Below are positions 1 through 29,346 of a DNA stretch of 64,000 nucleotides, one piece after another. The stretch covers positions 160,001-224,000 of the forward strand of contig CBDCXV010000001.1 of assembly GCA_965223905.1 (NCBI GenBank), written 5' to 3'. This DNA comes from Candidatus Latescibacterota bacterium. GTDB taxonomy: Bacteria > Latescibacterota > UBA2968 > UBA8231. The notes beneath the pieces are model-generated. The model was not told the origin of the DNA. It made no database searches and worked only from the letters and a program-made list of their open reading frames with translations. Positions within the stretch are counted from its first letter, which is position 1; each line of letters opens with the position of its first letter. The position numbers and the translations under genes are program-made.

Positions 1-627
1 ATCGCCCAGTGCCGCATCCACGAGTTTCTGCCCCACGAGCAGATGGAGCTCGCCGACGAGCGCGGCTGCTGGGTGACGATGCACCTGTCCAGGTTCCACG
101 GGTGCGCCGACCGGCGCAACCTCGACGATCTCGAGGAGTACACCACAAGGCGCTATCCCAACATCCGCTGGCTGCTCGCCCACTGCGCGCGCAGTTTCAC
201 CTACTGGCCGATTCGCAACGCGGTCGAGAGACTCCGGGACCTGCCCAACATTCACTACGACACCTCGGCGGTCACCGACGTCCGGCCCTACATCACGCTG
301 CTGACCCAGGAGAGGACGGAGCGCATTTTCTGGGGTACGGACGGCGTCGGCGCAGCCTTCTTCCACGGACATTACGCGGCCCTGGGCCGGTCCTGGCAGC
401 ACTACGACGCCGACGAGGGTGGGCTGCAGTTTCCGCACTGTGACGGGCGTCCGATCCTGGCGGTGTACGAGCAGCTCCTTTCGCTCAAGTTGGCCTCCGA
501 AATCGCGGGGCTGTCGCGCCACCAGATCGAGGGAATCTTCTGGCGCCATGCGGCGACAGCCCTGGGAATCGGCGAGGAGGAGGGCTTCGCCAACGGCGAT
601 CGAAGCGGCGGCGCCACCGGTTCCTGA
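1..627 (+). CDS. Amidohydrolase family protein, 5'-truncated by the window edge
   Basis: Frame open from base 1. Motifs TMH, LAHCARSF, YDTSAV and IFWGTD are typical of amidohydrolase_2 TIM barrels. Confidence 0.75.
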   Translation: MAQCRIHEFLPHEQMELADERGCWVTMHLSRFHGCADRRNLDDLEEYTTRRYPNIRWLLAHCARSFTYWPIRNAVERLRDLPNIHYDTSAVTDVRPYITLLTQERTERIFWGTDGVGAAFFHGHYAALGRSWQHYDADEGGLQFPHCDGRPILAVYEQLLSLKLASEIAGLSRHQIEGIFWRHAATALGIGEEEGFANGDRSGGATGS

Positions 628-8572: not shown

Positions 8573-10948
8573 TCAGGGCGTCGCCTTCGGCTTGCGCAGT
8601 TTGACGAGGGCGAGAATTTGCGCATGCGAAAGTTCCCGATCGCTGGCGATCAGCTGGACCGGCTTCCACACCCCTCCCATGCCATCCGTGTTCTTGACTC
8701 GCACAGCCAGCGCGTCACCTCCGCGAAGTTGCCCGGTCAGCGGCACGGTGAAGGGGACCCTCCAGATCTCCCACGAGATCAGGCCGGTCGTCTCCAGGCT
8801 GTGGTCGAAGATCAACCGCCCGTTCAGGTACACCCAGCAGTCCTCGTCCACCCCGCCGAAGAACAGGTACCGGTGCTTCTTCGCCAGATCCTCGACCGCC
8901 AGGGGCAGCGCGGTGCGGTACCAGCCGTATCCGGCGTTGTCCCTGGTGCCGTATCGCGCTGAATCCCACCCCTTGTCCACGTCGGTGCGGATCTCCTCCC
9001 ACTCGCTGATGTCGACGCTCTCTCCAAACCATCGCCCCTCGATACCCTCGTCGTCCTGGTCGGGCTTGAACCTCCAAGGCTCGGGGATGGTCGTGAGTCG
9101 CAGCTGGTCGAGGTCGATGTCGGCGAACATCTCCTCCGGCGACAACCTGCGATAACCCAGGCCTTGAAGGGCGATGATGCGCCGGGCCATCTCGCTACGG
9201 ATGGCGTCGAGGTCGCCCTCGGCGGCGTCGACCTGCCGGAGCCAGTTCCAGGTATCCTCCACGAGCGGCTCGTCAGGGAACCGTCCGGCAGACTCTCCGA
9301 GTCGGGCCAAAAGGGTCGTTAGGTAGCGCACGTCGTAGACACCTTCGCGAAAGCCCTCCCAGGTCAGCCCGTCGAGCACTCCATCTTCGGTGCGGTAGAC
9401 CATGCCGTAGATCATGGGCTGGTCGGCTCTGTCTTTTGACTCGATGTGTGCGTAGGCCCAGTTCATGGCGCCGTCGAAGCCGACGCGCCACATGCCGAGA
9501 CCGTTGTTGCGGCGGTGCAGACCGGGAACGGGAAAGCCGGCCTGCGGATTCATGTAGGTGAAAATCTTGCGGCCCTGGCGGTGCATCCCGTCGATCGCCT
9601 CGCGGTACCTGGGATCGTTCGCCTGTCGCGTGAAGGTGCCGGCCTCGCCGAGCTCGTGCATCTTTCGCAGGCCCTCCTGCGCCGACCATGCCTTGCGCTG
9701 ATGATCGAGGTGATACAGGACGCTGGACAGGAGCACGGGGCGCGTCAGCACATCGCCGACGCGTTCGAAAAACGTCGTGAACATCACGGCGACGAAGGTG
9801 GAGCCGCCCGCCTCTTCGATGGCGATCATGCTGTCGCGCTCGAGCGAGAGGTGGTCGCCCCACGACTCGTCCGGCATCGCCATGAACACGTCGTCATATC
9901 CTCGGCCCCGGGCCCAGGCATTGATGGCGGCTACACGGGTTTTCACCTGGCGATGTTCCTCCTCGGTCAGGGGGCGCAACGGCCTGGGCACGTGAGGGCT
10001 GATCATGTAGAGCACCCGCGGCCTCAGCCCGGCCTGCTCGCGCAGGTCGAGGATGCGATCGAGCTTTTTGAACTCGAAGCCGCCATCCGGCATGATCTCG
10101 GGACCGTCGTAGATGTTCGGGTTCGTCAGGCCGTGGTCGCGCATGTTGCGAAACTCGGCGAGCATCTGCTCGGCGCTCAGATCGCCGAACTTGTACCTGC
10201 TGGTATCGGGTGTTCCGGCTTCGAGGTAAGCCGGGTAGTAGATCGAATACTCGATCATCGGCGGCAGCAGATCGAAGGGATGGATTTCGATGGCGACGTC
10301 GAACTCCGTCGTTTCGCTGTTGCCCGGTGCGATATGAACTGTGGTCTGGTAGGTGCCCGCCCTGGCTTTCTCCGGAATCTGGATCGTCACCCAGAATTGT
10401 CTGCGCATGGCGATATCGACCGGCTGCAGCGAATCGGCATCCCGCAGCGGGCCTCTGGCGACGTTCGCCAGGCGATCGGGACGGCGCTCCGTAGGAGCCG
10501 GCTCGATCGCCAGGAAGCTGTCGTCGTGGACGAGGAGCGAAGGCATCACCGCCCAGCGGCTGGCCACCGTGTTGCGGTAGTAATCCTTGACGACGCGCAC
10601 GTCGACCGCAGTGGCCGGCCAGGTGCGTCCCTCACCGCGGACCGGGTCGACCTCGACGCCGACCTTCTCGAGCGGCTTCGAGGCACTGACAACGAAGGCG
10701 AGCGGCAGAAACTGACCGCGGCAACCGTGCAGCTCAATGTCCTCTACGGGCCGGCACACCGGCGGCAGCGGGCCGTCGGGAAGGATGGCGTGGTCGGTGA
10801 TGGGCGGGTCGACCAGGTGGACCTGGTAATCCGCGGCGACTGCGGGCAGCGCAATCAGGGTGAAAAGCAGTTGAGGTATCCCATACTTGGGTCGCCTGAA
10901 CCGAATTCTCCCCGCAGCGAGGGTCCTGAAGATGTTTCCACGTTCCAT
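8573..10948 (-). CDS. Putative secreted glycoside-hydrolase-like protein (GH123/DUF4091-like core) with C-terminal GH2_N-type sugar-binding domain
   Basis: Signal-like LLFTLIALPAVAA. WEGFREGVYDVRYL motif. C-terminal WRFKPD...GYGWYR...FGGVDEDCWVYLNG...GGVWKPV. Start uncertain. Confidence 0.6.
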   Translation of the reverse strand: MERGNIFRTLAAGRIRFRRPKYGIPQLLFTLIALPAVAADYQVHLVDPPITDHAILPDGPLPPVCRPVEDIELHGCRGQFLPLAFVVSASKPLEKVGVEVDPVRGEGRTWPATAVDVRVVKDYYRNTVASRWAVMPSLLVHDDSFLAIEPAPTERRPDRLANVARGPLRDADSLQPVDIAMRRQFWVTIQIPEKARAGTYQTTVHIAPGNSETTEFDVAIEIHPFDLLPPMIEYSIYYPAYLEAGTPDTSRYKFGDLSAEQMLAEFRNMRDHGLTNPNIYDGPEIMPDGGFEFKKLDRILDLREQAGLRPRVLYMISPHVPRPLRPLTEEEHRQVKTRVAAINAWARGRGYDDVFMAMPDESWGDHLSLERDSMIAIEEAGGSTFVAVMFTTFFERVGDVLTRPVLLSSVLYHLDHQRKAWSAQEGLRKMHELGEAGTFTRQANDPRYREAIDGMHRQGRKIFTYMNPQAGFPVPGLHRRNNGLGMWRVGFDGAMNWAYAHIESKDRADQPMIYGMVYRTEDGVLDGLTWEGFREGVYDVRYLTTLLARLGESAGRFPDEPLVEDTWNWLRQVDAAEGDLDAIRSEMARRIIALQGLGYRRLSPEEMFADIDLDQLRLTTIPEPWRFKPDQDDEGIEGRWFGESVDISEWEEIRTDVDKGWDSARYGTRDNAGYGWYRTALPLAVEDLAKKHRYLFFGGVDEDCWVYLNGRLIFDHSLETTGLISWEIWRVPFTVPLTGQLRGGDALAVRVKNTDGMGGVWKPVQLIASDRELSHAQILALVKLRKPKATP

Positions 10949-11126
10949 CGTCCTGCTCCGAATCTCGAACGGATCAGGATTCAGCAAAGGTGCTCTCGGG
11001 ATGATACAACGCCGTCCACGTTGCCACCTGTATCCGCGTAGTGATCGACGACCTCGACCGGGGATCGCCCCTTGATAATGCGGTGTTTTCGGTGCAATGT
11101 AGTCAATAGACCTGCGGACGAAAGCG

Positions 11127-11588
11127 ATGGTATCCTACCTGAAGCACCCGATGGTGCTGGCGTTAACCGGGCTCATAGCCGTGCTGGTACCCGGGCTGGC
11201 TCTGCTCACCCAGGCTTACGACGAGGCGCGCGATCGGTATTTCGACAGTTCCCTGCCGGCAGTACCCACAGATACAGAGATAGCGGCTATAGCTCGGCGA
11301 TTGTCTCCTGAGGAGACGGTGCTGCGCCTTACTGGCAACGTGCATGCTCCGGATTCCCCGCTTCGGTCAGGACTCGTTCGGGTCGATGCGGCCACGGATG
11401 ACAGGGGCGGGGAGTACTACGTCGCCCCTCGACCCTTGGGCTACAAAGTCCTCGAAGGTGCGTCCGCAGATGAGCCCGACGCACTTGATTGGGCCGCGCT
11501 TTCTCACGGCCTTCGGTTGACCCAGGAGGAATCGGTCTGCCACACCCCGGTCCTCCTCAGTGAAGTGATTACCGAACCAAAGATATAA
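11127..11588 (+). CDS. Hypothetical membrane-anchored or secreted protein heading the paralogue array
   Basis: N-terminal hydrophobic segment. Its stop codon abuts the RBS (AAGGAGG) of the next gene. Confidence 0.55.
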   Translation: MVSYLKHPMVLALTGLIAVLVPGLALLTQAYDEARDRYFDSSLPAVPTDTEIAAIARRLSPEETVLRLTGNVHAPDSPLRSGLVRVDAATDDRGGEYYVAPRPLGYKVLEGASADEPDALDWAALSHGLRLTQEESVCHTPVLLSEVITEPKI

Positions 11589-11600
11589 GGAGGGGGTGAC

Positions 11601-12521
11601 ATGGGAGTACACGGGTTGCTCACAGCAACAGCAGGGTTTTTTCTGGTTGGTGTCAGCGTGACGCTGGGACACATTGGCGACCGGGTGGTTCCGTTTTACG
11701 AAATCACCGAGGAGCTGCGGGAGACGATCGATCTGAATGACGGCTCAGTCGAGGATTGGATAGAGGTGGGGCCGCCCACTTTGACGCTGCTGGACTTCTT
11801 TGTTAGGAGTTCTATGCCCCCCAACACACAGCGCGATCCCGGCGATCTGGATATCCAGATCTGGCTGGGCTGGATGAAGTCTCCCCCCCGGATCTACGTG
11901 GCCGCTGTCCGAGCCGACAACGACTACGTGAACGAGTATCCGGATATTGAGGGGGATATGCTGATCTACGACTCGATCTCCCTGGGAGTCGACGGCGATC
12001 ACAGCGGAGGACAGCTGTTCGGCGAAGGTGGTAGCGAGACAGAGGAAGCTCGATTGATGCTCAACAAGCAAGTGCAACTTTACTCCGCCCTGCCCGAGGT
12101 GCCGGAGGGAAGCAATGTACAGTTGATTTTATCGTCGATGTGGAAGTGGCTCGTATGGCCGAATGAGCCGCCGTTCAGTCTTGGCGGCGGGGCGGTCGCA
12201 GGAGAGAATCCGTTCGTGTCGATTACCGAATTCTACGTGACGCCGTTCGATCTCTTCGTGTATAACAGCCCGGAGGAGAGCGTGGAATCGGAGTTGTACG
12301 CGGGCAAGACGATCGGCTTCAGACTCTTTGTGTTTGATAGGGCACCCGGCGTTTACTGGGTGATATATGAGCTGCAATCCGATTCTCCTTGGGAGCTTGA
12401 TGGGGAGTTCAACGACGGCATATTGCTTGGGGCGGACGATCTGAGCGGGCAAGACGCCGGTGACGGGTCTGTGGTGAAGCCCGACTCATGGGCCCGAATC
12501 AAGGCGTCGTTCGCGGAGTGA
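11601..12521 (+). CDS. Secreted CBM9/DOMON-like acidic protein with SWARIKA tail, copy A
   Basis: RBS, signal peptide, IDLNDGSVEDW, WLGW...IYVA, VDGDHSGG, EFYVTPFD, GKTIGF motifs. Fold is inferred. Confidence 0.8.
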   Translation: MGVHGLLTATAGFFLVGVSVTLGHIGDRVVPFYEITEELRETIDLNDGSVEDWIEVGPPTLTLLDFFVRSSMPPNTQRDPGDLDIQIWLGWMKSPPRIYVAAVRADNDYVNEYPDIEGDMLIYDSISLGVDGDHSGGQLFGEGGSETEEARLMLNKQVQLYSALPEVPEGSNVQLILSSMWKWLVWPNEPPFSLGGGAVAGENPFVSITEFYVTPFDLFVYNSPEESVESELYAGKTIGFRLFVFDRAPGVYWVIYELQSDSPWELDGEFNDGILLGADDLSGQDAGDGSVVKPDSWARIKASFAE

Positions 12522-12774
12522 AGCCGGACGGGCGGCACATCTGCTTCCACGGCAACTCCTCTCCGTAATACAGCAAGACCTTCGCATCACTCACCCTTAT
12601 TTTTCCACTCGCACTCATCGAGAAACTCGCCACTCGTCAATGACGAGCCCTTCCCGCCCGCGCAGCATTCGCTCGGGAGTCCGGGGAAGCGCCTCGCGGA
12701 TTTCAGACCCTTAACGCGATGGATGAAGCGCACATGGGGCGACTGAGCCTGAGATAAAGGGAGGAGGCGATGAC

Positions 12775-13680
12775 ATGGGAACACACGGACTGCTAGCGGC
12801 AACAGCAGGGTTTTATCTGTTCGGTGTCAGCGTGACGCTGGGACACACAGGCGACCGGGTGTATCCGTTTTACGAAATCACCGAGGAGCTGCGGGAGACG
12901 ATCGATCTGAATGACGGCTCAATCGAGGATTGGATAGAGGTGGGGCCGCCCAGTTTGACGCTGCTGGATTTCTTTGTTACGGGGCCCAGTTCCACCAACA
13001 TACAGCGCGATCCCGGCGATCTGGATATCCAGATCTGGCTGGGCTGGATGAAGTCTCCCCCCCGGATCTACGTGGCCGCTGTCCGAGCCGACAACGACTA
13101 TGTGAACGAGTATCCGGATATTGATGGGGATATGATGATCCACGACTCGATCTCTCTGGGAGTCGACGGCGATCACAGCGGAGGATCGCTGTTCGACTTC
13201 GACGAATTGATGCACAGCAAGCAAGCGCAACTTTACTCCGCCCTACCCGAGGTGCCGGAGGGAAGCAATGTCCAGTTGGGTTTATCGGCGAGTTGGAAGT
13301 GGCTCGTATGGCCGTCAGAGCCGCCGTTCAGTCTTGGCGGCGGGGCGGTCGCAGGAGAGAATCCGTTCGTGTCGATAACCGAATTCTACGTGACGCCGTT
13401 CGATCTTTTCGTGTCTACGAGCCCGGAGGAGAGCGTGGAATCGGAGTTGTACGCGGGCAAGACGATCGGCTTCAGACTCTTTGTGTTTGATAGGGATTCG
13501 GCACCCGGCTTGTACTGGGCGATGTATGATCTGCAATCCGATCCTCTCTGGGAGCTTGATCGGGAGTTCAACGACGGCATATTGCTTGGGGCGGACGATC
13601 TGAGCGGTCAAGACGCCGGTGACGGCTCGGTGGTGGAGGCCGATTCGTGGGCGCGGATCAAAGCGTCGTTGGCGGAGTGA
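12775..13680 (+). CDS. Secreted CBM9/DOMON-like protein with SWARIKA tail, copy B (close paralogue of A)
   Basis: RBS GGAGG and long stretches of DNA identical to copy A. Confidence 0.8.
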   Translation: MGTHGLLAATAGFYLFGVSVTLGHTGDRVYPFYEITEELRETIDLNDGSIEDWIEVGPPSLTLLDFFVTGPSSTNIQRDPGDLDIQIWLGWMKSPPRIYVAAVRADNDYVNEYPDIDGDMMIHDSISLGVDGDHSGGSLFDFDELMHSKQAQLYSALPEVPEGSNVQLGLSASWKWLVWPSEPPFSLGGGAVAGENPFVSITEFYVTPFDLFVSTSPEESVESELYAGKTIGFRLFVFDRDSAPGLYWAMYDLQSDPLWELDREFNDGILLGADDLSGQDAGDGSVVEADSWARIKASLAE

Positions 13681-13709
13681 AACCGAACAAGCTCGGAAGG
13701 GGGAAGGTG

Positions 13710-14570
13710 ATGTCCGTGCTGATGAGATATGTAGGGTTGATGGCCCTCGTGAATCTCGGCGTCCCGCTCGCCGCAGATGCCCATACCGGGGATCGCGTCT
13801 ATCCCATTGTCGAGTTGACGGACGAAATGCTCGCGCAGATCGATCTCAAGGACGTATCGGTGCAGGACTGGATAGACCTCCTGGGTGAGCCGGTGTTGAC
13901 GGCCCTCGATTTTGAAACGCGCGATGGAGACAGCTACAATCCCGGCGACATGGACTTTCGGATATGGTTGGCATGGCATGACGAGTCCGACAAGCTGTTT
14001 GTTGCCGGTCAATTTGCCGACGACGCTACCCAGGTAAAGAACAGCATCTATGATAATGTTCTCCGGGTAGACACTGTTTTGCTGTTTGTTGACGGCGATC
14101 ACAGCGGACCGCCGTATACTGGACCAGAAGGTATCACTCAAGGCTCGAGTTACATAGCGACACCATTCGTAGCGGAGGGGCCGGTTGTTGGCTGGCTTGG
14201 TCCACCCCATTGGGTGTCGAGCCCACCCTACAGTGATGGAGGGGGAGGAGTGTTCAATGAGAGTCCGATCCTCTGGGTCATCGAATTTCTGGTCACCCCG
14301 TTCGATGTTTTTGGCTGGGATGATGATTCTCCGGACGGGAGCATAGCCTCCACCCTGGAGGCCGGCGAAGTGATCGGATTAGGCATCGAAGTCTTGGATT
14401 TGGACGCTTTAGGGGTGAAGGAAGGCACGCGCTTCGCCCTGTCCGGTGTCCATTGGTGGCAGGACGATTTGCTTGACGGTCTCCTGCTTGGGGCGGGTGA
14501 AATCCTCGACGACGGCTCGGTGGTAGAGGCCGATTCGTGGGCGCGGATCAAGGCGACGTTCGAGGAGTGA
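13710..14570 (+). CDS. Secreted CBM9/DOMON-like protein with SWARIKA tail, copy C
   Basis: ATG 13710, signal peptide ending ADA, same motif order as A/B (GDRVYP, DW, WLAW, VDGDHS, EFLVTPFD, GEVIG). Confidence 0.8.
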   Translation: MSVLMRYVGLMALVNLGVPLAADAHTGDRVYPIVELTDEMLAQIDLKDVSVQDWIDLLGEPVLTALDFETRDGDSYNPGDMDFRIWLAWHDESDKLFVAGQFADDATQVKNSIYDNVLRVDTVLLFVDGDHSGPPYTGPEGITQGSSYIATPFVAEGPVVGWLGPPHWVSSPPYSDGGGGVFNESPILWVIEFLVTPFDVFGWDDDSPDGSIASTLEAGEVIGLGIEVLDLDALGVKEGTRFALSGVHWWQDDLLDGLLLGAGEILDDGSVVEADSWARIKATFEE

Positions 14571-14598
14571 GACTAACAGACCCGCAAGGAGGTAGGTG

Positions 14599-15465
14599 AT
14601 GTCCGTGCTGATGAGATATGTAGTGTCGATGGCCCTCGTGAATCTCGGCGTTCCGCTCGCAGCAGATGCCCATACCGGGGATCGCGTCTATCCCATTGTC
14701 GAGTTGACGGACGAGATGCTCGCGCAGATCGATCTCAAGGACGTATCGGTGCAGGACTGGATAGATGTCCTGGGTGAACCGGTGTTGACGGCCCTGAATT
14801 TTGAAACGGATATAGGCAGTTACGATCCCGGGGACATGGACTTTCGAATATGGTTGGCATGGCATGACGAGTCCGACAAGCTGTTTGTTGCCGGCCAATT
14901 TGCCGACGACGCTACCCAGGTAGAGGGCAGCATCTATGAGAATGCTCGCTGGGAGATAGACAGGGTTTCGCTGTTCGTTGACGGCGATCACAGCGAACCG
15001 CCGTATGCTGGGCCAGAAGGTTTCCATCAAGGCACGTGGTACATAGCGACACCATTCCTGGCGGAGGATCCGGATGTACTCTTCCCTGCTGATGAACCCC
15101 ATTGGGCGTCGAGTCCACCCTACAGCGATGGAGGAGGAGGAGTGTTCAATGAGAGTCCGATCCTCTGGGTCATCGAATTTCTGGTCACCCCGTTCGATGT
15201 TTTTGGCTGGGATGAGGATTCTCCGGACGGAAGCATAGCCTCCACCCTGGAGGCCGGCGAAGTGATCGGACTGGCCATCGAAGTCCATGATAACGACGAT
15301 TTTAGGGTGAAGGAGCGCACGCGCTTCGCCCTGTCCGGTGTCCTTTGGTGGCAGGACGATTTGCTGCTTGACGGTCTCCTGCTTGGGGCAGGTGAAATCC
15401 TCGACGACGGCTCGGTGGTGGAGGCCGATTCGTGGGCGCGGATCAAGGCGACGTTCGAGGAGTGA
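14599..15465 (+). CDS. Secreted CBM9/DOMON-like protein with SWARIKA tail, copy D (close paralogue of C)
   Basis: RBS AAGGAGGT and framework DNA nearly identical to copy C. Confidence 0.8.
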   Translation: MSVLMRYVVSMALVNLGVPLAADAHTGDRVYPIVELTDEMLAQIDLKDVSVQDWIDVLGEPVLTALNFETDIGSYDPGDMDFRIWLAWHDESDKLFVAGQFADDATQVEGSIYENARWEIDRVSLFVDGDHSEPPYAGPEGFHQGTWYIATPFLAEDPDVLFPADEPHWASSPPYSDGGGGVFNESPILWVIEFLVTPFDVFGWDEDSPDGSIASTLEAGEVIGLAIEVHDNDDFRVKERTRFALSGVLWWQDDLLLDGLLLGAGEILDDGSVVEADSWARIKATFEE

Positions 15466-15495
15466 AAGCTGAACTAACCGGCGTGGTTGATTTAA

Positions 15496-15585
15496 CATCT
15501 GATTGAATTCTTCCGTGCCACCTGGGATAGGTTCCTCAAGGGCAAGAAGCTCGAGAACATCATCGACAAGAAACTCGGTTATTGA
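15496..15585 (+). pseudogene. 3' remnant of a D-2-hydroxyacid dehydrogenase-like gene
   Basis: Reads HLIEFFRATWDRFLKGKKLENIIDKKLGY* with no start and an in-frame stop just upstream. Resembles the family's typical C-terminus (F..N..R.L.G..L.N.VDK..GY). Confidence 0.55.
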
Positions 15586-15688
15586 TTTGCCGATTCCCTC
15601 CGTCCTGCTCCCACCCACCGGTTGGCTTCGGGCCTGGATCTTCGACAGTGGACTCTGCCGGTCATTGTCGCGGGCCCCCGTCCTTTCT

Positions 15689-16492
15689 TCAGTATCCCAA
15701 TCGCTTCAGATACTCGCGAGTCCCCCTGCTCCGCTGCGCCTCTGTAACCGGTTCGTCCCCGGGCGGGGGCTGGCCGGGACAGCAGGTGACGCAGCGATCG
15801 AAGCCCTGGTCTGCCAGCAACTTCAGTATTCCCGGGAAATCCATGTTGTCGCCTTGCCCCACATCGCACCAGACCGGCAGGTAGTATCCGTCCTGTCGCC
15901 GCGACGTGGAGGTGTAGTCCTGTAGGTGGACATAGTTGAGCTGATCCCAAAAATTGACGATGGACTCCAGCGGATCGTACCCCCACAGCTGGGAATGGGA
16001 AACGTCGATACAGAGCTTCGCCTTGCGCAGGCAGCTCATGTAGAGGCGCCAGTGTTCGATTGAGTCCACCAGCGTGTTGGTGTGGATGTGATAGCTCACC
16101 TCCAGATCCAACCGCGCGGCGTATTCCGCCCAGGACTCGGCACTCTCAGCGGCGGCCCTGATGTCGTCATCACCTGCCGCACGACCCTCCGGCTTGGGGC
16201 CGCTCATGAACATGAAACAGTCGGCCTCGACCTCAGCGGCGAATTCCATGCGCCGCCGGTTCCTCTCCACGTGCTCCCACTCCGTGTTGTCCGGCGAGCC
16301 ACGGGCAGCGAGCACGTACATCGGCATTCCGGTGTCGGCGCAGATTCGGCGCAGCCTCGCAGGCGAGCCAAGCCAGTCGAGAGGAAGGCGACACTCCCAG
16401 CCATCCCACCCGGCCCTCTTGAGCTCTTCCAAGGCAACCTCAAGGTCTGGTGTTTGCCAGAACAGAGTACTGTAGCACATCGTGAATGCCAT
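15689..16492 (-). CDS. Sugar phosphate isomerase/epimerase (IolE-like TIM barrel)
   Basis: GWDGWE, YHIH, CIDVSH, YVHLQD and VGQGDNMDF motifs. RBS GAGGAGG. Confidence 0.8.
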   Translation of the reverse strand: MAFTMCYSTLFWQTPDLEVALEELKRAGWDGWECRLPLDWLGSPARLRRICADTGMPMYVLAARGSPDNTEWEHVERNRRRMEFAAEVEADCFMFMSGPKPEGRAAGDDDIRAAAESAESWAEYAARLDLEVSYHIHTNTLVDSIEHWRLYMSCLRKAKLCIDVSHSQLWGYDPLESIVNFWDQLNYVHLQDYTSTSRRQDGYYLPVWCDVGQGDNMDFPGILKLLADQGFDRCVTCCPGQPPPGDEPVTEAQRSRGTREYLKRLGY

Positions 16493-17954: not shown

Positions 17955-19697
17955 CTACAGACGTCTCCGGAGGCTGCGTGGAGCGCCCGCGGCCCCTTCC
18001 ACCAGCTCGATCGAGCGACCCGACTGCACCGCATAGAGCCGATCGATCACACCAGACGGCCAATCCACGCGCACACTGTCCACAACACTGCTGGTTCCCA
18101 GCCCGAAGTGGACACGCAGATCGTTCCCCCCGAGAAAGCTGGAGCCTGCGGCGACTTCGCGGACCTGCCTGCGGCCGCCGGTAAAGGCCGTTACCCTCGC
18201 GCCGACGGCACTCCGGTTGCTCTGCTGCCCGATCAGGTTCAGCAACAGCCAGTTCCCGGAAGACGCGTCGTTGCGCAGCAACGTTGGCCGGTCGTCCAGA
18301 TTCAGAACCAGCAGGTCGAAATCGCCGTCGTTGTCGTAGTCTCCCGCGCAGCTCCCACGGCTGACCCGGCGCAGCGCCAAAGCGTCCACACCACCCACTT
18401 CTCCGAAGGTGCCGTCCCCCCTGTTCTCGAACAGCTGATTCGGCTGCGAGTAGGTCTCCTCGCCCAGCTCGAGCCGGTCGATCTGGGGATAGGCATGACC
18501 GTTGGCCACGAACAGATCCAGGTCGCCGTCGTGGTCGTAGTCGATGAAATTGGTCCCCCATCCCACGTACGGCTGGCTCTTGCTTCCCAATCCAGCCTGC
18601 ATGGTGATGTCCAGGAAGTGACGGCCGGCTTGGTTGCGGTACAGGGCGTTGTAGTCGCTGGCAAAATGGGTCACGAACAGGTCGGGAAATCCATCCCCGT
18701 TGAAGTCGCCAAATGCCGCTCCCATCCCGGCCTGCCCCTTCCCCTGGTAGTTGTAGGCCACGCCTGCGGCAAGGGCCACCTCGCGAAAGGATCCATCGCC
18801 ACGGTTGTGGTAGAGCAGGTTAGGGGTCGAGTCATTGGCGATGAACAGGTCGGGCCAGCCGTCCAGATCGTAATCCCCGAACAGGGCGGCAAATCCGTAG
18901 TATTCGTTCTTGTCCTCCACTCCCGCATCCGCGGTCGCCTCGAGAAATCGGCCGTCCCCTTCGTTGCGGTAGAGACGGTCGGCCGCACCCCCCAGGCTGC
19001 GCGGACCGCAAAAGACATCCACCGACTTCCACTGGCAGAATGGACGATTCTCCCGCTCCAGGTGTGGGTCGAAATTGACGTAGTTGACCACGTAGAGGTC
19101 CAGGTCCCCGTCCAGATCGTAGTCGCCGAATGCCGCTCCCGTGCTCCACCTTGAGTCACCGACGCCGGCAAAGCCGGAAATCTCCGAAAAGTGGCCGTCG
19201 CCTTCGTTGCGGTAAAACCGATTGGTCCCATAGTTGGTGACGTACAGGTCCGTATCCGAGTCGTTGTCGTAATCGGCGGCGACGCAACCCATCCCCCATC
19301 CGGTATCCCCGACTCCCGCCGCCTCGGTAACGTCGCCGAAGGTGCCATCCGTCTCGTTGCGGTAGAGCGCATTGTGCCTGGGAATCCCGCTGGCATGAGC
19401 TTCGAGCTTCGATCCATTGACGAAATAGATGTCGACATAGCCGTCGCCGTCGTAGTCGAAAAAGGCGCCCCCGCCACCCTTGGCTTCGACGATATGCCAT
19501 TTTTCCGGACCACCCGATCCATGCACCCAATCCAGTCCTGCCTCTGCGGTCACGTCGACGATCTGTGGCCTCGTCGCAGGCGCGGATCTCACGTTTTCAT
19601 GTCGAGTAAGGCTCGGATCCTCCGGCGACGGGGAACTGCAGGCGCTCAGGCAGCACGCGCCTATCCATGCAGGGAGCAGATGGAAAACGCGATTCAT
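17955..19697 (-). CDS. CRTAC1-family lipoprotein (FG-GAP/VCBS repeats plus ASPIC-UnbV)
   Basis: Repeated DYDxDGDxDLY(V/F) motifs, NRSAVGARV and VHFGLG. Lipobox LSAC. Confidence 0.9.
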   Translation of the reverse strand: MNRVFHLLPAWIGACCLSACSSPSPEDPSLTRHENVRSAPATRPQIVDVTAEAGLDWVHGSGGPEKWHIVEAKGGGGAFFDYDGDGYVDIYFVNGSKLEAHASGIPRHNALYRNETDGTFGDVTEAAGVGDTGWGMGCVAADYDNDSDTDLYVTNYGTNRFYRNEGDGHFSEISGFAGVGDSRWSTGAAFGDYDLDGDLDLYVVNYVNFDPHLERENRPFCQWKSVDVFCGPRSLGGAADRLYRNEGDGRFLEATADAGVEDKNEYYGFAALFGDYDLDGWPDLFIANDSTPNLLYHNRGDGSFREVALAAGVAYNYQGKGQAGMGAAFGDFNGDGFPDLFVTHFASDYNALYRNQAGRHFLDITMQAGLGSKSQPYVGWGTNFIDYDHDGDLDLFVANGHAYPQIDRLELGEETYSQPNQLFENRGDGTFGEVGGVDALALRRVSRGSCAGDYDNDGDFDLLVLNLDDRPTLLRNDASSGNWLLLNLIGQQSNRSAVGARVTAFTGGRRQVREVAAGSSFLGGNDLRVHFGLGTSSVVDSVRVDWPSGVIDRLYAVQSGRSIELVEGAAGAPRSLRRRL

Positions 19698-21424
19698 TCA
19701 AGCACTCCCTCAGACCCCGCCCACTGTTCCACGCCCCTTCCCTCGACAACGGTGAGAAACTGATTGGCGTCGACGCCCTGGAATCTTTCCATGGCGCCGC
19801 CCGGCCACCTGACCTCGACGACATCGGCCCTCGTTCGGTGGCCGAGTCCGAAGCTCACCCGCGTGTCACTCTGCGACAGGTAGCTGTAGCTGCCCTTGAC
19901 CTCCTTCGTCTGGGCCAGATCGCCTGCCTTGACGAGGATACGAGCCCCGATGCTGTGCCGCTTGCTCAAAGCTCCGACGGCACTGATGGACAACCAGTTG
20001 CCGGCATTGCCTCCGTCGTTGCGCAACAAAGCTGCCCGCCCGCCCGAGTTGCCCACGAGGATGTCGACATCGCCGTCGTTGTCATAGTCGCCGAATGCAC
20101 ATCCCCTTCCGACGTTTACCAGCCTGAGACCGGCGCCGGCCACGTCCGATACGTCCTCGAACCTGTATCGCCCGCTCTCGTCCGGACCGCTGTTGCGTAA
20201 CAGCAGATCCTGTTGCGCGTAGGATGTGTACGGGTCGACTACGTCCGCGTGGTCCTGAACGTGGCCGTTGGCGACGAACAAGTCCTGGAAACCATCGTTG
20301 TCGTAGTCGACAAAACCGATGCCGAATCCCAGGGGGCGCAGACTCGCCAGCCCGGCGCCGGACGTGTAGGAAGCGTTGGAAAACCGGAGTCTCTGTTTGT
20401 ACTCGTACAAGCTGTTGGGCTCATTCTGAAAGTTCGCAACGACGATGTCCATGTCCCCGTCGTTGTCGTAGTCTCCCGCATCCACTCCCATGCCGGCCTC
20501 TTTCTGGCCGTCGAGGCCGTAGGCCACACCCGCCATTGCACCGATCTCCCGGAACGAACCGTCTCCGGTGCCGTGGTAGAGGAAGTTCCTCGACGCGTCG
20601 TTGGCCACATAGAGATCGACCAGGCCATCCCCGTCAAAATCCGTTGCAACGACTCCCAGTCCCCGACCTTCCGTCTCGACGGTGTCCACCAGCCCGGCGC
20701 CATTCGTCACGTCGAAGAACATGCCGTCTCCTTCGTTGCGGTATAGGATATCGGCCGCCCCACTGAAATTGCGGGGGTGGGGATAGGATTTGAGATTCCG
20801 CACCGAAATGGATCCAGCCAAGTAAGGCTCCAGCTCCAGAGCTGCGAACGACAGATCGTACTTCACGTAGTTGGCGACGTACAGGTCCAGGTCCCCGTCG
20901 TTGTCGAAGTCGAGGAATGCCGCGCTGGTGCTCCAGCTGGTGTCCCCGACAGCCGCCCGCCGGGTGGCATCGAGGAAGCGACCGTTACCCTGGTTTCTAT
21001 AGATCGCGTTGGCGCCGTAGTTGGTCACCAGGAGGTCGAGGTGGCCATCGTTGTCGTAGTCGGCGGCGGCACAGCCCATCCCGTAGCCAAGGTCATTCGC
21101 TCCCGCTGCCTCGCTGATCTGTTTGAATATCCCACTTCCCCTGTTGCGGTAGAGCGCGTTGCCCGTTTCGGAGGTCGCTCGATACCCGGGCAGGGGTGCG
21201 CCGTTGACCAGGTAGACATCGAGATGGTCATCCCCGTCGTAGTCCAGGAAGGCGACCCCTCCTCCCATGGTCTCGGGGAAGTACTTCTGCCCACTGGCGC
21301 CGTTCACGTGCTGGAAGTCGATGCCGGCCTCGGCGGATACCTCGACAAACCGGACTCCGAGAACGGGATCGGCCAGCACCAACAGAAACATGTAGACACC
21401 CCAACGAAAAAACCGATTCGTCAT
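19694..21424 (-). CDS. CRTAC1-family protein (FG-GAP repeats plus ASPIC-UnbV)
   Basis: ETMGGGVAFLDYDGD, repeated DYDNDG, SYLSQSD and SFGLG. Confidence 0.9.
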   Translation of the reverse strand: MTNRFFRWGVYMFLLVLADPVLGVRFVEVSAEAGIDFQHVNGASGQKYFPETMGGGVAFLDYDGDDHLDVYLVNGAPLPGYRATSETGNALYRNRGSGIFKQISEAAGANDLGYGMGCAAADYDNDGHLDLLVTNYGANAIYRNQGNGRFLDATRRAAVGDTSWSTSAAFLDFDNDGDLDLYVANYVKYDLSFAALELEPYLAGSISVRNLKSYPHPRNFSGAADILYRNEGDGMFFDVTNGAGLVDTVETEGRGLGVVATDFDGDGLVDLYVANDASRNFLYHGTGDGSFREIGAMAGVAYGLDGQKEAGMGVDAGDYDNDGDMDIVVANFQNEPNSLYEYKQRLRFSNASYTSGAGLASLRPLGFGIGFVDYDNDGFQDLFVANGHVQDHADVVDPYTSYAQQDLLLRNSGPDESGRYRFEDVSDVAGAGLRLVNVGRGCAFGDYDNDGDVDILVGNSGGRAALLRNDGGNAGNWLSISAVGALSKRHSIGARILVKAGDLAQTKEVKGSYSYLSQSDTRVSFGLGHRTRADVVEVRWPGGAMERFQGVDANQFLTVVEGRGVEQWAGSEGVLE

Positions 21425-21508
21425 ATTCGATCGAGGAATTTCACCTTCTCGCAAGCACTCGAGTTGGGCCGCGCGCGTATCTCGACTCGAGGCCGGGATG
21501 GCAGAGCC

Positions 21509-22705
21509 CTACCTGCCTTCCGCCGACACTCTCCTGGCCATTTGCCGGGCTCGCCGCTCTTTTTGGTGATCCCCGCTTTGTCGGTACGCGGTGGCCAGCT
21601 GATCGTACAGTCCCGCCTGGCCGGAATCGATTTCGGCCGCCTTTTCCAGCATTCGGACGGCCCGTTCGTACCTCTTCAAAAGCAGGTAGGCCTTGCCGAG
21701 CCCGAAATAGGCTGCACCCAGAGAGCTGTCGAGTTCGATAGCCTTGAGGTAGTGCGTTTCGGCGGGCCCCGGTTCCCCTTCGCGGAAGAAGGCAGAGGCC
21801 AAGCGAAGATGTGTATTGGCGTTTCCTGGATCGGCTTCGACTTCGGCAAGGAGCACGGAGGCATCCTCCGCGAGGCTCGTCAGCACCCGGAATCGCTGCA
21901 AGGCATTTTCTGCTGCTTCTTCCCGCCCGAGCGCCAGGTAGAGCTGGCCGAGGTTGGAATAGGCCATGGCCAGATTGGTGTCCAGCATGGCGGCCTTCTC
22001 CAGCAATTCCAGAGCCTCGGCAAGGCGTGTGTCGGCCCGGTAAAAAACCGCAAGCTCACACATGGCCTCGGCGTGCTCCGGGCGCAGTTCCAGCAGTTTG
22101 CGGTAAGCCTCTTCGGCCTCCGAGGAGCGGCCCTGGAACTTGAAGAGGCCCCCGAGCCGTTCATAGGCAGGGGCCAGTGCCGGATCCAGACTCAGCGAGC
22201 GGCGGTAGGCGACCTCGGCGGAATCCAGATCCCCTCCATGGGTGTAGAGGTTTCCAAGGGTATAGAAATAGGCCTTGCTGTCTGGGTCCAACCGAACGGC
22301 CCTTTGCGCCTCGGCCACGGCGGAATCCAGTAAAGGACCGCGATGAGTCTCCAGGAACTGGTCCAGAAGCAGCTCCGCGCGGGCAAAAGGCACCTCCGCA
22401 CGCGATCTGTCCAGGGATGCCGCCCGCTGCAGCGCTTCCCCGGCCTGCACTCTGTCCCCCATGCCCAGGTGGGAACGGCTCAATCCCGAATATGCCCGGA
22501 CAGAATCTTCTCCTCCTTCGAGGGCCGCCTGGAAAGCTTGCAGAGCCCGCTCGTGGCGTCGATTGCCAAGATGCGTTTCCCCCAGGCGATTCTGCAGGTC
22601 GAGGCCATCCGGCCTGGATTCGGGCAGAAAGATCCCATCCTGCCCCGGCTCCGAGCACCCCCACCAGAGGGAAAGGATGGAACAGATCCTTATCGCCCGA
22701 AGCAT
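21509..22705 (-). CDS. TPR-repeat lipoprotein
   Basis: Signal ending WWGC and multiple TPRs (AYSNLGQLY, AYFGLGKAY). Confidence 0.8.
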   Translation of the reverse strand: MLRAIRICSILSLWWGCSEPGQDGIFLPESRPDGLDLQNRLGETHLGNRRHERALQAFQAALEGGEDSVRAYSGLSRSHLGMGDRVQAGEALQRAASLDRSRAEVPFARAELLLDQFLETHRGPLLDSAVAEAQRAVRLDPDSKAYFYTLGNLYTHGGDLDSAEVAYRRSLSLDPALAPAYERLGGLFKFQGRSSEAEEAYRKLLELRPEHAEAMCELAVFYRADTRLAEALELLEKAAMLDTNLAMAYSNLGQLYLALGREEAAENALQRFRVLTSLAEDASVLLAEVEADPGNANTHLRLASAFFREGEPGPAETHYLKAIELDSSLGAAYFGLGKAYLLLKRYERAVRMLEKAAEIDSGQAGLYDQLATAYRQSGDHQKERRARQMARRVSAEGR

Positions 22706-22791
22706 CGCGAATCTCGCCGGACTCGGTGAAGTGACTCGGATAGATGGACGCACACATACCGCCCTGTTCTTCCTCCGTGCAAAAGGCATTG

Positions 22792-24045
22792 TCATTGCCC
22801 CCGGCCCATGCCGGCCAAGCCGCTGTCCGGATCAGCTGCCAGGGCGCGGAAGTCCGCGCCGGCAGGTTGCTGGAACACCCGCAGGTCGAACTCGGGCACC
22901 ACCGCGAGCAGGTGGTCGAAGATGTCGGCCTGGATCGTCTCGTAGTTCGCCCACACGGTGTCGTTGGTAAATACGTAGATCTCGATCGGCAGGCCGGCGT
23001 CGCCCGGTTGCAGCTGGCGCACGAGAAAAGTGAGGTCCTGGCGGATCCTGGGGTGGCGGCGCAGGTAGGCGATCACGTACGCCCTGAAAGTCCCGACGTT
23101 GGTCAGTCTCCTGCCGTTGATCAGTTGGCTCGTGTCGACCTCGGTGGAGGCGTTGTAGTCGGCGACTTCCCGCCGCCTCTCGCGCACGTATTCCCGAATC
23201 AGCTCGAACTTCTCGAACCGCTCCAGCATCTCGTCGCTGCATATCCGGATCGTCTGCATGTCGATGAACAGCGAGCGCTTGATGCGCCGGCCGCCGCTCT
23301 CCTTCATGCCGCGCCAGTTCTTGAAGGAGGCGTCGATCAGCTTGGGAGTCGGGATGGTGGTAATCGTCTTGTCCCAGTTCTGGACCTGGATCGTGTGCAG
23401 GGAGATGTCGATGACGTCGCCGTCCGCTCCGAAAGCCGGCGCCTCGATCCAGTCCCCCTCGTCGACGAGGTTCTGCGAGCGGATCTGAATGCTGGCGACC
23501 AGGGACAGGATGGTGTCGCGGAAAATCAGCAGCACGACCGCGGTCATGGCGCCGATGCCGCCCAGCAGGCCCAGGGGCGAGCGCCCCAGCATCAGCGCCG
23601 CCACCACCAGCGAGCCCACCACGTACAGGGCGATTCTGGTGATCTGCACGTAGCTCCTGATCGGGACCTTCTCCGCCACGGGGAGCCGCCCGTAGAACCC
23701 GTCGAATGCGCTCAGCATCGAACCGCCGATGAGCAGCCCCAACACGCCTACGACTGCCACCAGGATTTGCCGGATCAGCTCGGGCGGACCGGGAAGGACT
23801 TCGGCGCCGTGGAACAGGACGGCGGCCGGCACCAGCATGGCAGAGCGTCTGAGAACACCGGTATCGAGCAGAAGGTCGTCGAGGTCGGTGCGGCTGCGCC
23901 GGATCAGTCGCTCCAGGACGCGGAGAAAGACGTTGCGGGCAAGGAAGTAGCTGAGCCAGACCAGCCCCAGCAGAAGCGCGGTCTGTCCGAATTCATGGGC
24001 TACCCGGCGGGCCAGTTGTGCGGACATCTCGACTATTCCGTCCAT
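22792..24045 (-). CDS. MscS-family mechanosensitive channel (YbdG-like)
   Basis: GDWIE...GADGDVIDI, VQNWDKT, FKNWRGM...GGRRIKRS, TNVGTFRAY and QADIFDH motifs. Confidence 0.92.
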   Translation of the reverse strand: MDGIVEMSAQLARRVAHEFGQTALLLGLVWLSYFLARNVFLRVLERLIRRSRTDLDDLLLDTGVLRRSAMLVPAAVLFHGAEVLPGPPELIRQILVAVVGVLGLLIGGSMLSAFDGFYGRLPVAEKVPIRSYVQITRIALYVVGSLVVAALMLGRSPLGLLGGIGAMTAVVLLIFRDTILSLVASIQIRSQNLVDEGDWIEAPAFGADGDVIDISLHTIQVQNWDKTITTIPTPKLIDASFKNWRGMKESGGRRIKRSLFIDMQTIRICSDEMLERFEKFELIREYVRERRREVADYNASTEVDTSQLINGRRLTNVGTFRAYVIAYLRRHPRIRQDLTFLVRQLQPGDAGLPIEIYVFTNDTVWANYETIQADIFDHLLAVVPEFDLRVFQQPAGADFRALAADPDSGLAGMGRGQ

Positions 24046-28449: not shown

Positions 28450-29346
28450 ATGGAGACAACTGAGTTCCGGCATACATCACAAGGCGGCGAAATCATCCTC
28501 CATCGGCGGGACTGCATCTCGGGAATGCAGGAGCTGCTGAAGCCTGAGTCGATCGACGTCGTGGTGACCTCGCCCCCCTACAACCTCGGGGTCGCCTACC
28601 GGTCCTACGACGACACCGCCCCGCGAAATGAGTACCTCGACTGGATCGAGGCCTGGGGAGAGGCGCTCCACAGGGTATTGAGCCGCCGCGGATCGCTGTT
28701 CCTCAACGTGTCGGGAAAACCGTCGGATCCCTGGGGGCCCTTCGAGATTCTTCAGCGGCTACGGAACCGGTTCGCACTTCAGAACACGCTGCATTGGATA
28801 AAATCGATCGCAATCGACGCGGACCTCGTAGGGAGCACCAGTGCGCTCGCGACGAACGTCGCAGTCGGCCACTACAAGCCGATAAACAGCAGGCGTTACG
28901 TAAACGACTGCCACGAATACATCTTCCACCTGACCAAGTTCGGCGATGTCGAATTGGATCGACTCGCAGTCGGAGTAGAGTACCAGGACAAGTCCAACGT
29001 GGACAGATGGTCGGGAGCAAAGGATGACCTGCGCTGCCGCGGCAACACCTGGTTCATTCCGTACCGGACGATTCAGAGCCGCGACCGGGAACGGCCGCAC
29101 CCTGCAACGTTTCCGGTCAGGGTGCCCGAGATGTGCATCCGCCTGCACGGACTGCAACGAGTCGACCGCGCCATGGATCCATTCCTTGGGCTCGGACACA
29201 CCGCATTGGCATGCAAGGCACTGGGGGTCCCCTTCCTGGGCTTCGAGCTGGACGAAGGGTACTTCTCGGAGGCGTGCCATCTGCTTGAAAGCTTTGATCC
29301 CGCGCCGATGGAAAGTCGGTCCCAGGATCAGTTATCCCTTTTCTGA
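28450..29346 (+). CDS. Site-specific DNA methyltransferase, beta class, probably N4-cytosine (M.MjaV-like)
   Basis: Catalytic TSPPY precedes SAM-binding DPFLGLG (beta order). VGHYKPINS, HEYIFH, RGNTWFIPY and HPATFP recall M.MjaV from memory. Confidence 0.9.
   Translation: METTEFRHTSQGGEIILHRRDCISGMQELLKPESIDVVVTSPPYNLGVAYRSYDDTAPRNEYLDWIEAWGEALHRVLSRRGSLFLNVSGKPSDPWGPFEILQRLRNRFALQNTLHWIKSIAIDADLVGSTSALATNVAVGHYKPINSRRYVNDCHEYIFHLTKFGDVELDRLAVGVEYQDKSNVDRWSGAKDDLRCRGNTWFIPYRTIQSRDRERPHPATFPVRVPEMCIRLHGLQRVDRAMDPFLGLGHTALACKALGVPFLGFELDEGYFSEACHLLESFDPAPMESRSQDQLSLF

Follow-up and report, generated by a model that had tools for sequence, protein, structure and literature searches.

Tandem CBM9-like paralogues with fast-changing segments in a Candidatus Latescibacterota genome

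Four adjacent genes, A to D, lie on the forward strand of a 64,000-nucleotide stretch of a Candidatus Latescibacterota genome (assembly GCA_965223905.1, contig CBDCXV010000001.1, positions 160,001 to 224,000), the whole of which is called the window below. Their products are predicted to be secreted proteins with a CBM9-like fold, and within each of the two pairs of close paralogues, A/B and C/D, the differences are concentrated in a few short segments that are also hotspots of change throughout the family. The explanation that fits best overall, which we hold to be about evenly poised between right and wrong, is that of a tandem array of an expanded CBM9-type family, whose fast segments form the binding slot and whose repertoire is partly under diversifying selection. 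The original prediction, based on the letters of the window, had described an antibody-like array of four with frozen frameworks and co-located variable loops. The four open reading frames (ORFs) are present and every peptide difference that it quoted was recovered by alignment, but the array turned out to be four copies among about 50 loci of the genome.

Clustered divergence and family-wide hotspots

Over the columns of the family hidden Markov model (HMM), A and B are 87% identical in amino acids and C and D 84%; between the two pairs, protein identity is about 43%. The duplicated units are 11588-12529 and 12762-13688 for A/B (88.6% DNA identity), and 13621-14570 and 14511-15465 for C/D (89.5%). 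Codon alignment gave 239 identical, 18 synonymous, 42 nonsynonymous and 9 gapped codons for A/B, and 222, 23, 40 and 5, respectively, for C/D. Whole-gene synonymous divergence (dS) was 0.139 and 0.163, with a nonsynonymous to synonymous ratio (dN/dS) of 0.55-0.59.

The clustering of substitutions and in-frame indels noted at first sight proved significant. Variable columns at most 2 columns apart made up 52% in A/B, versus 30% after permutation (p=0.0002), and 54% in C/D, versus 27% (0 of 5000 permutations). At the DNA level, perfect runs, the longest of 99 nt in A/B (permuted mean 42, p<0.0005) and 80 nt in C/D (permuted mean 47, p=0.016), are interrupted by patches of 20-70 nt with about 40-50% mismatch. 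Patch 3 contains a 7-codon indel between A and B, and 16 C-specific changes fall within the single 90-nt alignment window that contains patch 4 of C. The description of the framework as frozen and nearly identical was overstated: in framework columns, DNA identity is 94.5% (581/615) for A/B and 90.8% (550/606) for C/D, and third positions are 91.2% (187/205) and 88.1% (178/202) identical.

Whether the same segments vary in both pairs, as had been claimed, depends on how it is asked. Direct co-location is marginal: 11 variable columns are common to both pairs where 6.9 are expected (Fisher p=0.056), and the smoothed correlation of variability is 0.32 (shift test p=0.047). Through the rest of the family the claim is strongly borne out. 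From 116 distinct full-length copies, taken from the same genome and from loci fetched from relatives, we drew 23 reciprocal-nearest pairs with 70-97% identity. The 21 pairs other than A/B and C/D served to define “hot” columns, 68 of the 278 mature ones, the remainder being “cold”. A/B vary in 31/68 hot versus 17/210 cold columns (odds ratio, OR, 9.5, p=5e-11), and C/D in 22/68 versus 25/210 (OR 3.5, p=2e-4). Indels follow the same pattern (87/1369 hot column-cells versus 44/5025 cold, OR 7.7). In the numbering of D, the hot blocks are 72-75, 114-120, 136-142 (plus 148 and 150), 159-165 and 229-252; the last and largest includes patch 5. These blocks are the five segments of the original prediction, which are thus family-wide hotspots.

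Fold and presumed binding slot

An AlphaFold2 model of D had a mean predicted local distance difference test score (pLDDT) of 80.9 and a predicted template modelling score (pTM) of 0.79. It matched the xylanase module TmCBM9-2 (1i82_A) with a VIA Z of 17.0 (root mean square deviation, rmsd, 2.8 over 185/189 residues), CkCBM9.3 (7nwn) with a Foldseek E of 1.5e-9, and BACUNI_03838 (4JPQ) with a Z of 14.9 (rmsd 3.4, 197 aligned). The nearest ESM Atlas clusters are annotated in part as CBM9_1. These matches, which bear out the early guess of a CBM9/DOMON-like beta-sandwich, indicate that, as modelled, the family proteins share the CBM9 beta-sandwich fold. Sequence profiles detect little of this: against Pfam CBM9_1 (PF06452), D scored 14 bits (E=0.047), below the cut-off of 23.4, and no match was found for A, B or C, which speaks against the assignment; an NCBIfam search returned nothing at E<=1; and the family profile, searched against PDB sequences, found no CBM9, only a chance ribosomal match (E=0.46).

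The family thus has the beta-sandwich in common with TmCBM9-2 of Thermotoga maritima xylanase 10A (1I82/1I8A/1I8U) and with CkCBM9.3 (7NWN/7NWO), at 9-14% sequence identity. Motifs of TmCBM9-2 and the family are in register, first W..D and then W-x-x-D-x-V-x-x-F-x-D-x-x-H. Whereas TmCBM9-2 is a module appended to a xylanase, A to D are stand-alone, single-domain proteins of 286-306 amino acids, with about 46 additional residues, located in loops. Unlike CBM9, they also have a conserved N-terminal His and a C-terminal tag, and their family numbers from dozens to more than 75 copies in a genome. The Bacteroides uniformis protein BACUNI_03838, putatively carbohydrate-binding, is likewise stand-alone with a CBM9-like fold, but it is 7% identical, and for it there is no evidence of expansion or of a C-terminal tag.

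Where the variable segments lie on this fold was approached through known CBM9 binding residues. Passages of PMC8280721 give the aromatic clamp of TmCBM9-2 as Trp71/Trp175, include Ala31, Gln96, Gly108, Ile164 and Asn172 in the binding area, and place the first clamp residue of CkCBM9.3 on a helix lying between strands 4 and 5. As a bridge we used a true CBM9_1 protein of the same genome, which aligns with 1i82_A (E=7e-4). This alignment puts W-E-Q-D-S-V-E-I-F-I-D of TmCBM9-2 in register with W119-E-I-D-R-V-S-L-F-V-D of D, so that W119 corresponds to Trp71. In the model, W119 sits on a helix (117-120) between strands 95-104 and 123-129, which are strands 4 and 5, the place of the first clamp position in CBM9. 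It also falls within hot segment 114-120, and patch 2 includes the position in register with it. The other binding-area residues were placed approximately, by offsets from the conserved anchors W89, D129, Q147, E194 and D232. By these offsets from the residues named in those passages, Ala31, Gln96 and Ile164/Asn172 map within or next to hot blocks 1, 3 and 5, Trp175 is one residue beyond block 5, near W251/W252 of D, and Gly108 is a few residues beyond block 4. Motif register therefore supports a location of the variable segments at or near the CBM9 sugar-binding residues.

Three observations weaken the case for a slot. That the segments converge on one face is deduced from the TmCBM9-2 sequence register, which is exact for Trp71 only. 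An aromatic residue (W/Y/F) in exact register with the clamp is not a constant feature of the family: it is found in only 29/116 copies, and A, B and C do not have it. Finally, coil is not significantly over-represented among hot columns (OR 1.57, p=0.17). The clamp position itself is hypervariable across the 116 copies, and 83/116 have W/Y/F within the six columns that precede it.

The same fold superfamily includes the EB_dh/DOMON-like heme-b subunits, and the model also matched NxrC (7B04_C, Z 11.6), EbdC (2IVF_C, Z 11.1) and the cytochrome domains of cellobiose dehydrogenase (Z 6.0). The family could then consist of redox or metal-handling proteins that bind a cofactor or metal through the N-terminal His and the His of the DGDHS motif, rather than of glycan binders; both residues are well kept (His26 in 96/116 copies, His132 in 112/116). 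We regard this as highly improbable. The CBM9 matches are clearly stronger, residues conserved at 85% or more include neither Met nor Cys, and the sole Lys among them is in the C-terminal tag, which differs from EbdC and NxrC, as does the location of the family genes outside any molybdoenzyme operon. Moreover, the His of DGDHS has a counterpart in the TmCBM9-2 alignment, also a His, and is therefore a CBM9 feature, for which reason the idea of an N-terminal “histidine brace” was downgraded.

Selection, drift and recombination

A pairwise maximum likelihood codon model was fitted in which hot columns and cold columns each had a dN/dS (omega) of their own. When both classes shared one synonymous rate, omega_cold was 0.24 and omega_hot 2.07 in A/B (likelihood ratio test, LRT, against 1, p=0.026), and 0.50 and 2.22 in C/D (p=0.010). 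The shared rate was not rejected, the hot/cold synonymous ratio being 0.63 in A/B (p=0.60) and 1.8 in C/D (p=0.26). Two pairs in relatives had an omega_hot of 2.86 (LRT 5.1) and 4.32 (LRT 8.3) even when the synonymous rate was left free.

Other results count against positive selection. With a free synonymous rate, omega_hot was 3.2 (p=0.14) in A/B and 1.3 (p=0.61) in C/D; counting tests on hot columns gave p=0.09, 0.47 and 0.20 for A/B, C/D and both pooled; and the leave-one-out hot omega pooled over the 23 pairs was 0.73. The hot/cold synonymous-rate ratio exceeded 1 in 19/23 pairs (median 1.8), so that homogenisation of the framework, or multi-nucleotide mutation, may inflate the apparent omega. 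Of the two causes offered by the original prediction, diversifying or positive selection on the hot segments is thus suggested by the shared-rate estimates, and omega above 1 is not established.

Comparison of pairs within and between genomes, which are phylogenetically non-independent, gave a mixed picture. With a shared rate, omega_hot exceeded 1 in 10/16 within-genome pairs (median 1.29) versus 2/7 between-genome pairs (median 0.58), and with a free rate in 7/16 versus 1/7. In 6/7 between-genome pairs it was 0.03-1.05, and the between-genome median fell to 0.28 with separate synonymous rates. In sum, hot sites change rapidly between paralogues, and they are mostly kept in matched copies of different genomes.

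Could all this be neutral? In a birth-and-death process, tandem duplication would be followed by drift of the least-constrained surface stretches at omega near 1 and by decay of many copies, with no selected specificities. The free-rate and counting tests, which do not distinguish omega_hot from 1, and the pooled value are what this predicts. Hot columns also have the highest entropy family-wide (3.38 versus 1.82 bits) and coincide with the lower-pLDDT stretches of the D model. Decay may be visible too, and to that extent it counts against a maintained repertoire: 15 loci of the same genome are each hit in exactly two ORFs, which in many cases are the complementary halves of a single copy (examples in Table 1), and a close relative of D on contig C10 has an in-frame TAG. 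Such copies fit pseudogenes of neutral birth-and-death, or long-read frameshift errors. Drift does not readily account, however, for the constraint on hot columns between genomes, for a gene A that is nearly unchanged in a sample from another study, for the two pairs of relatives with high omega_hot, or for the share of changed codons with two or more nucleotide changes (14/33 in A/B and 21/43 in C/D, that is 42-49%, at a dS of only about 0.14-0.16). We therefore consider neutral birth-and-death a serious candidate, if on the unlikely side.

Segmental gene conversion, the other cause first offered, had a mixed outcome. Recombination among close copies is real: homologues of the C/D clade from other assemblies have differing combinations of patch types, 92/231 informative column pairs in this clade do not pass the four-gamete test, and sites are more compatible with their neighbours than after permutation (test akin to the pairwise homoplasy index, p=0.001). 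The C/D repeat unit begins inside the 3' end, the tag-coding sequence, of the preceding gene, and this boundary fits an unequal crossover there. B's last 60 nt or so are 93.5% identical to the 3' ends of C/D, with proteins only about 43% identical. A scan of 43 copies for conversion tracts found no internal one; high-identity tracts between otherwise divergent copies numbered only 3, all at the extreme 3' end or tag.

Conversion as the main cause would mean that the duplications are older than they look, neighbours homogenising their frameworks while the patches escape or are imported. The mosaic C/D clade, the shared 3' tracts, the long perfect runs and the higher synonymous rate of hot columns in most pairs all lend themselves to this. 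Yet in A/B and C/D that rate is not different from 1 relative to cold columns, and codons with an unchanged amino acid are no more diverged in hot columns: a synonymous difference was found in 0/32 hot versus 15/191 cold codons in A/B, and in 3/33 versus 18/177 in C/D, which argues against old patches in a converted framework. Nor did the genome, 93.6% complete, contain a donor for the patches of A, B or C anywhere, and for the patches of D the only match was the sister pseudogene on C10. On the strength of this search, patch import from a template within the genome was rejected, and conversion as the principal process appears improbable to us.

The closest relatives of A/B and C/D are in two further arrays of the same genome (G000), at C10:2137939-2141635 and C11:1697527-1700568. 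There, the D-like copy with the in-frame TAG has exactly the patch 4 of D, and an A-like pair located on different contigs is 95.6% identical in DNA.

In antibodies and in the targets of diversity-generating retroelements (DGRs), such as Mtd with its C-type-lectin fold, a fixed scaffold carries variation in a few segments around the binding site. The family resembles them in that its variation is also concentrated in few segments, presumably around a binding site, on a conserved scaffold. Its diversity, on the other hand, is germline, encoded as many paralogues, with no adjacent reverse transcriptase (RT), no adenine-specific mutagenesis, alleles that are stable between samples and, compared with antibodies, no evident programmed rearrangement. 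Since the variants are stable germline alleles, “antibody-like” holds as an analogy only, and not as a mechanism.

That the pattern is an artefact of mis-assembled strain variants, or the work of a DGR, is an idea to which we give almost no credence. Read evidence consisted of assembled contigs, which break up within the array and gather paralogues as well, and six RT genes are present in the genome. A zero-difference contig nevertheless bridges the A-B junction (12489-12865), and a contig from an RNA library, of low depth and possibly from DNA carry-over, bridges C-D (14441-14656). For gene C, short-read contigs without difference cover 14010-14270 (X3) and 14010-14260 (X4), and an RNA-library contig, with the same reservations, 14142-14320. 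The window lies on a 1.72 Mb contig, and similar tandem arrays exist in several other complete genomes. Mis-assembly was rejected on the bridging contigs, the patch sequences confirmed at zero difference and these comparable arrays. A contig from an independent study spans gene A completely, differing at 8 positions and by 1 gap over 1411 nt, which excludes ongoing hypervariation. As first stated, the window contains no RT; the nearest hit on the same contig is at C1:30583, and none of the six is adjacent to a family locus. Mismatches fall on adenine no more than on other bases (16/70 in A/B, 19/97 in C/D). With neither an adjacent RT nor an adenine bias, nor a template repeat or second copy of the patches of A to C, a DGR was rejected.

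One short-read contig of run X1 joins 13683, at the 3' end of B, to 15417, at the 3' end of D, with 21 letters on one side. This joint is most likely due to the repeated tag sequence, through which the path is ambiguous, and not to a deletion variant.

Distribution, C-terminal tag and neighbourhood of the family

The genome (7.9 Mb in 11 contigs) has 88 matches to the family HMM, or 79 ORFs in 50 loci, with further tandem arrays on C6, C10 and C11; under a stricter criterion, a full and uninterrupted domain, 24 ORFs remain. The congeners G001 and G002 have at least 75 matches each (141 and 135 candidates), and G012, of another genus, has 36. Among the genomes searched, family copies were found in 17/18 from the same taxonomic family and in 0/12 from two sister families. 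A profile search of 1.84 billion representatives returned 416 clusters at E<=1e-30. Among the 120 homologues listed, none had a functional name or Pfam domain; the named relatives are Candidatus Latescibacterota metagenome-assembled genomes (MAGs). Most homologues have 280-340 amino acids, and a few are fused within proteins of 608-1813. Family copies also occur in MAGs titled Gemmatimonadaceae and Aminicenantes (L063, L069, L088, L094; L065, L067). Those from the Gemmatimonadaceae-titled MAG are 82-89% identical to Latescibacterota MAG copies and include a syntenic three-gene array, a similarity that suggests mis-binning or recent transfer.

Parts of the sequence are present in libraries labelled sponge metagenome. 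In passages of PMC6081418, CBM9-annotated proteins are among the more frequently detected CAZy families of one sponge metaproteome. A scan of JGI metagenomes for DNA of close relatives gave 146 pattern matches, of which 0 were confirmed. Literature searches, with passages of PMC8280721, PMC12993501 and PMC6081418, yielded no description of this family, its expansion or its tag. We conclude that the family is real and represents a new, stand-alone version of the CBM9 fold, heavily expanded, in which variation is focused on the presumed binding slot.

Table 1. Coordinates of the array genes, their segments and related loci (window positions, unless a contig is given).
Feature	Position	Strand	Description and basis
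Gene A	11601-12521	+	306 aa, predicted secreted CBM9-like protein, A/B subfamily; ORF, family alignment, family HMM E=1e-147
Gene B	12775-13680	+	301 aa, recent paralogue of A; ORF, alignment
Gene C	13710-14570	+	286 aa from ATG 13710; alternative GTG 13647 gives 307 aa
Gene D	14599-15465	+	288 aa from ATG 14599 (GTG at 14596); recent paralogue of C; copy that was modelled
Predicted signal peptide	A 11601-11669; B 12775-12843; C 13710-13781; D 14599-14670	+	Hydrophobic N-terminus; in D, modelled helix 2-23
Variable patch 1	A 11800-11835; B 12974-13009; C 13915-13945; D 14804-14831	+	DNA alignment; family hot columns D 72-75
Variable patch 2	A 11949-11969; B 13123-13143; C 14030-14090; D 14916-14981	+	DNA alignment; family hot columns
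Variable patch 3, after the DGDHS motif	A 12005-12075; B 13179-13228; C 14105-14150; D 14994-15039	+	DNA alignment
Variable patch 4	A 12118-12170; B 13272-13323; C 14165-14215; D 15054-15107	+	DNA alignment
Variable patch 5	A 12330-12400; B 13483-13559; C 14375-14430; D 15265-15320	+	DNA alignment
Conserved C-terminal tag	A 12462-12518; B 13621-13677; C 14511-14567; D 15406-15462	+	Residue conservation; D ends ...DGSVVEADSWARIKATFEE
Tag-motif ORFs, examples in the same genome	C1:770615-771988; C2:59582-61463; C10:1852266-1853210; C7:4812-5306		
Two-ORF loci, examples in the same genome	C1:288204-289165; C1:796654-797689; C10:1332414-1333369; C11:1914414-1916633		

The predicted signal peptides would end in a putative small-x-small cleavage site before a His, which would be the first mature residue (His26, kept in 96/116 copies). 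At the other end, the tag has the form ...V-x-x-x-S-W-A/G-R-I-K-A..., in which W280, R282, I283, K284 and A285 (numbering of D) are conserved in 92-100% of the 116 copies; in the D model its pLDDT is below 50. When the motif S/T-W-G/A-R/Q-I/V-K-A/S was searched at most 12 residues from the C-terminus, it ended 58 ORFs of the same genome, 42 from the family and 16 from outside it. Scanning 11 of the latter gave matches to a PD40 propeller, FGE-sulfatase, Temptin_C, FlgD_ig and a true CBM9_1 domain. The coding pattern of the tag was counted 30 times in G000, 68 in G001, 52 in G002 and 22 in G012, against 0-1 for a reversed-pattern control, and it was present in 15/18 genomes of the same taxonomic family and 0/12 from sister families. 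The C-terminal domain of the type IX secretion system (Por_Secre_tail/CHU_C, about 80 residues) had no Pfam hit in A to D, where the tag is only about 15-20 residues long; tails of the FlgD_ig or CHU_C kind do occur on other proteins of the genome. As a signal for sorting or anchoring, the W-G/A-R-I-K-A tag may be new.

PheT, RNase Y, XseA and others mark the window as ordinary chromosome. Neighbours of the array are a GH123-like protein, a sugar-isomerase-like TIM barrel, an amidohydrolase and two FG-GAP/ASPIC proteins; the latter, ASPIC-UnbV paralogues in tandem (17955-19697 and 19694-21454, both on the reverse strand), lie just downstream and are followed by a TPR protein (21509-22795). Directly upstream of A is an ORF (11127-11588, forward) whose 153-aa product has a hydrophobic N-terminus and does not match the family; its stretch 11242-11400 is present with 0 differences in an RNA-library contig, of low depth and possibly from DNA carry-over. 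Beside 50 family loci there was no recurrent partner gene, the largest similarity group among 100 flanking ORFs having 3 members; representatives of these groups were CotH with FlgD_ig, a CHU_C-tailed protein, an M9 collagenase and unknowns. A promoter and terminator scan of 10900-15800 was uninformative, since the one promoter-like and the one terminator-like site were both under shuffle expectation. Long antisense ORFs overlap the family genes (13608-14210, 200 aa, and 14548-15618, 356 aa, both reverse), and we take them to be by-products of high G+C rather than genes.

Elsewhere in the window, two large proteins are secreted or at the surface by prediction: one of 1494 aa with He_PIG/Big_9/Ig-like domains and an FlgD_ig tail (55751-60235, reverse), and one of 1117 aa with PD40 repeats (38647-42000, forward). 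The statement that the window has no recombinase did not stand, as a DDE_3/HTH transposase is encoded at 42220-43305 (forward), about 27 kb from the array. An N6_N4 DNA methylase (28450-29343, forward) is also far from it.

Taken as a process, the array is part of a lineage-specific, expanded family of secreted proteins of about 290-310 aa, each predicted to be a single CBM9-type beta-sandwich. New copies arise by tandem duplication. After duplication the core of the sandwich is under purifying selection (omega 0.24-0.50), whereas five or six short segments change fast, by multi-nucleotide substitutions and in-frame indels. Close copies swap segments by recombination, and matched copies between genomes mostly retain theirs. 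By homology with the aromatic clamp of TmCBM9-2 and its neighbouring residues, the fast segments would form the ligand-binding slot, and the genome would therefore carry a germline repertoire of predicted binders with different, probably glycan, specificities. Diversifying selection between paralogues would maintain these differences at least in part. The proteins would be exported by Sec, and the shared C-terminal tag might direct sorting or anchoring.

The fullest form of this proposal is a germline “lectin repertoire”, which in this genome would comprise about 50 loci and in each congener at least 75 matches. In it, clamp segments are kept different by diversifying selection, indels and shuffling, each copy binds its own glycan of host, prey or matrix, and display or export uses the undescribed tag, which unrelated secreted proteins share. 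We put it forward tentatively, as a possibility that we would sooner doubt than assume.

If it is right, few known sets of paralogues with a single carbohydrate-binding fold would be as large as that of bacteria in this uncultured phylum, and its variation would be focused on the slot. Such a set would be a natural library of CBM9 scaffolds of differing specificities, useful for glycan probes, and would help to understand how uncultured bacteria of the phylum sense or hold complex glycans. Should neutral drift be the right account instead, the family would be an ordinary, but unusually large, case of birth and death. The array is a tractable case in which duplication, recombination and selection may build a binding repertoire without a somatic mechanism and, if the tag is a sorting signal, it would provide a new handle on protein export in the phylum.

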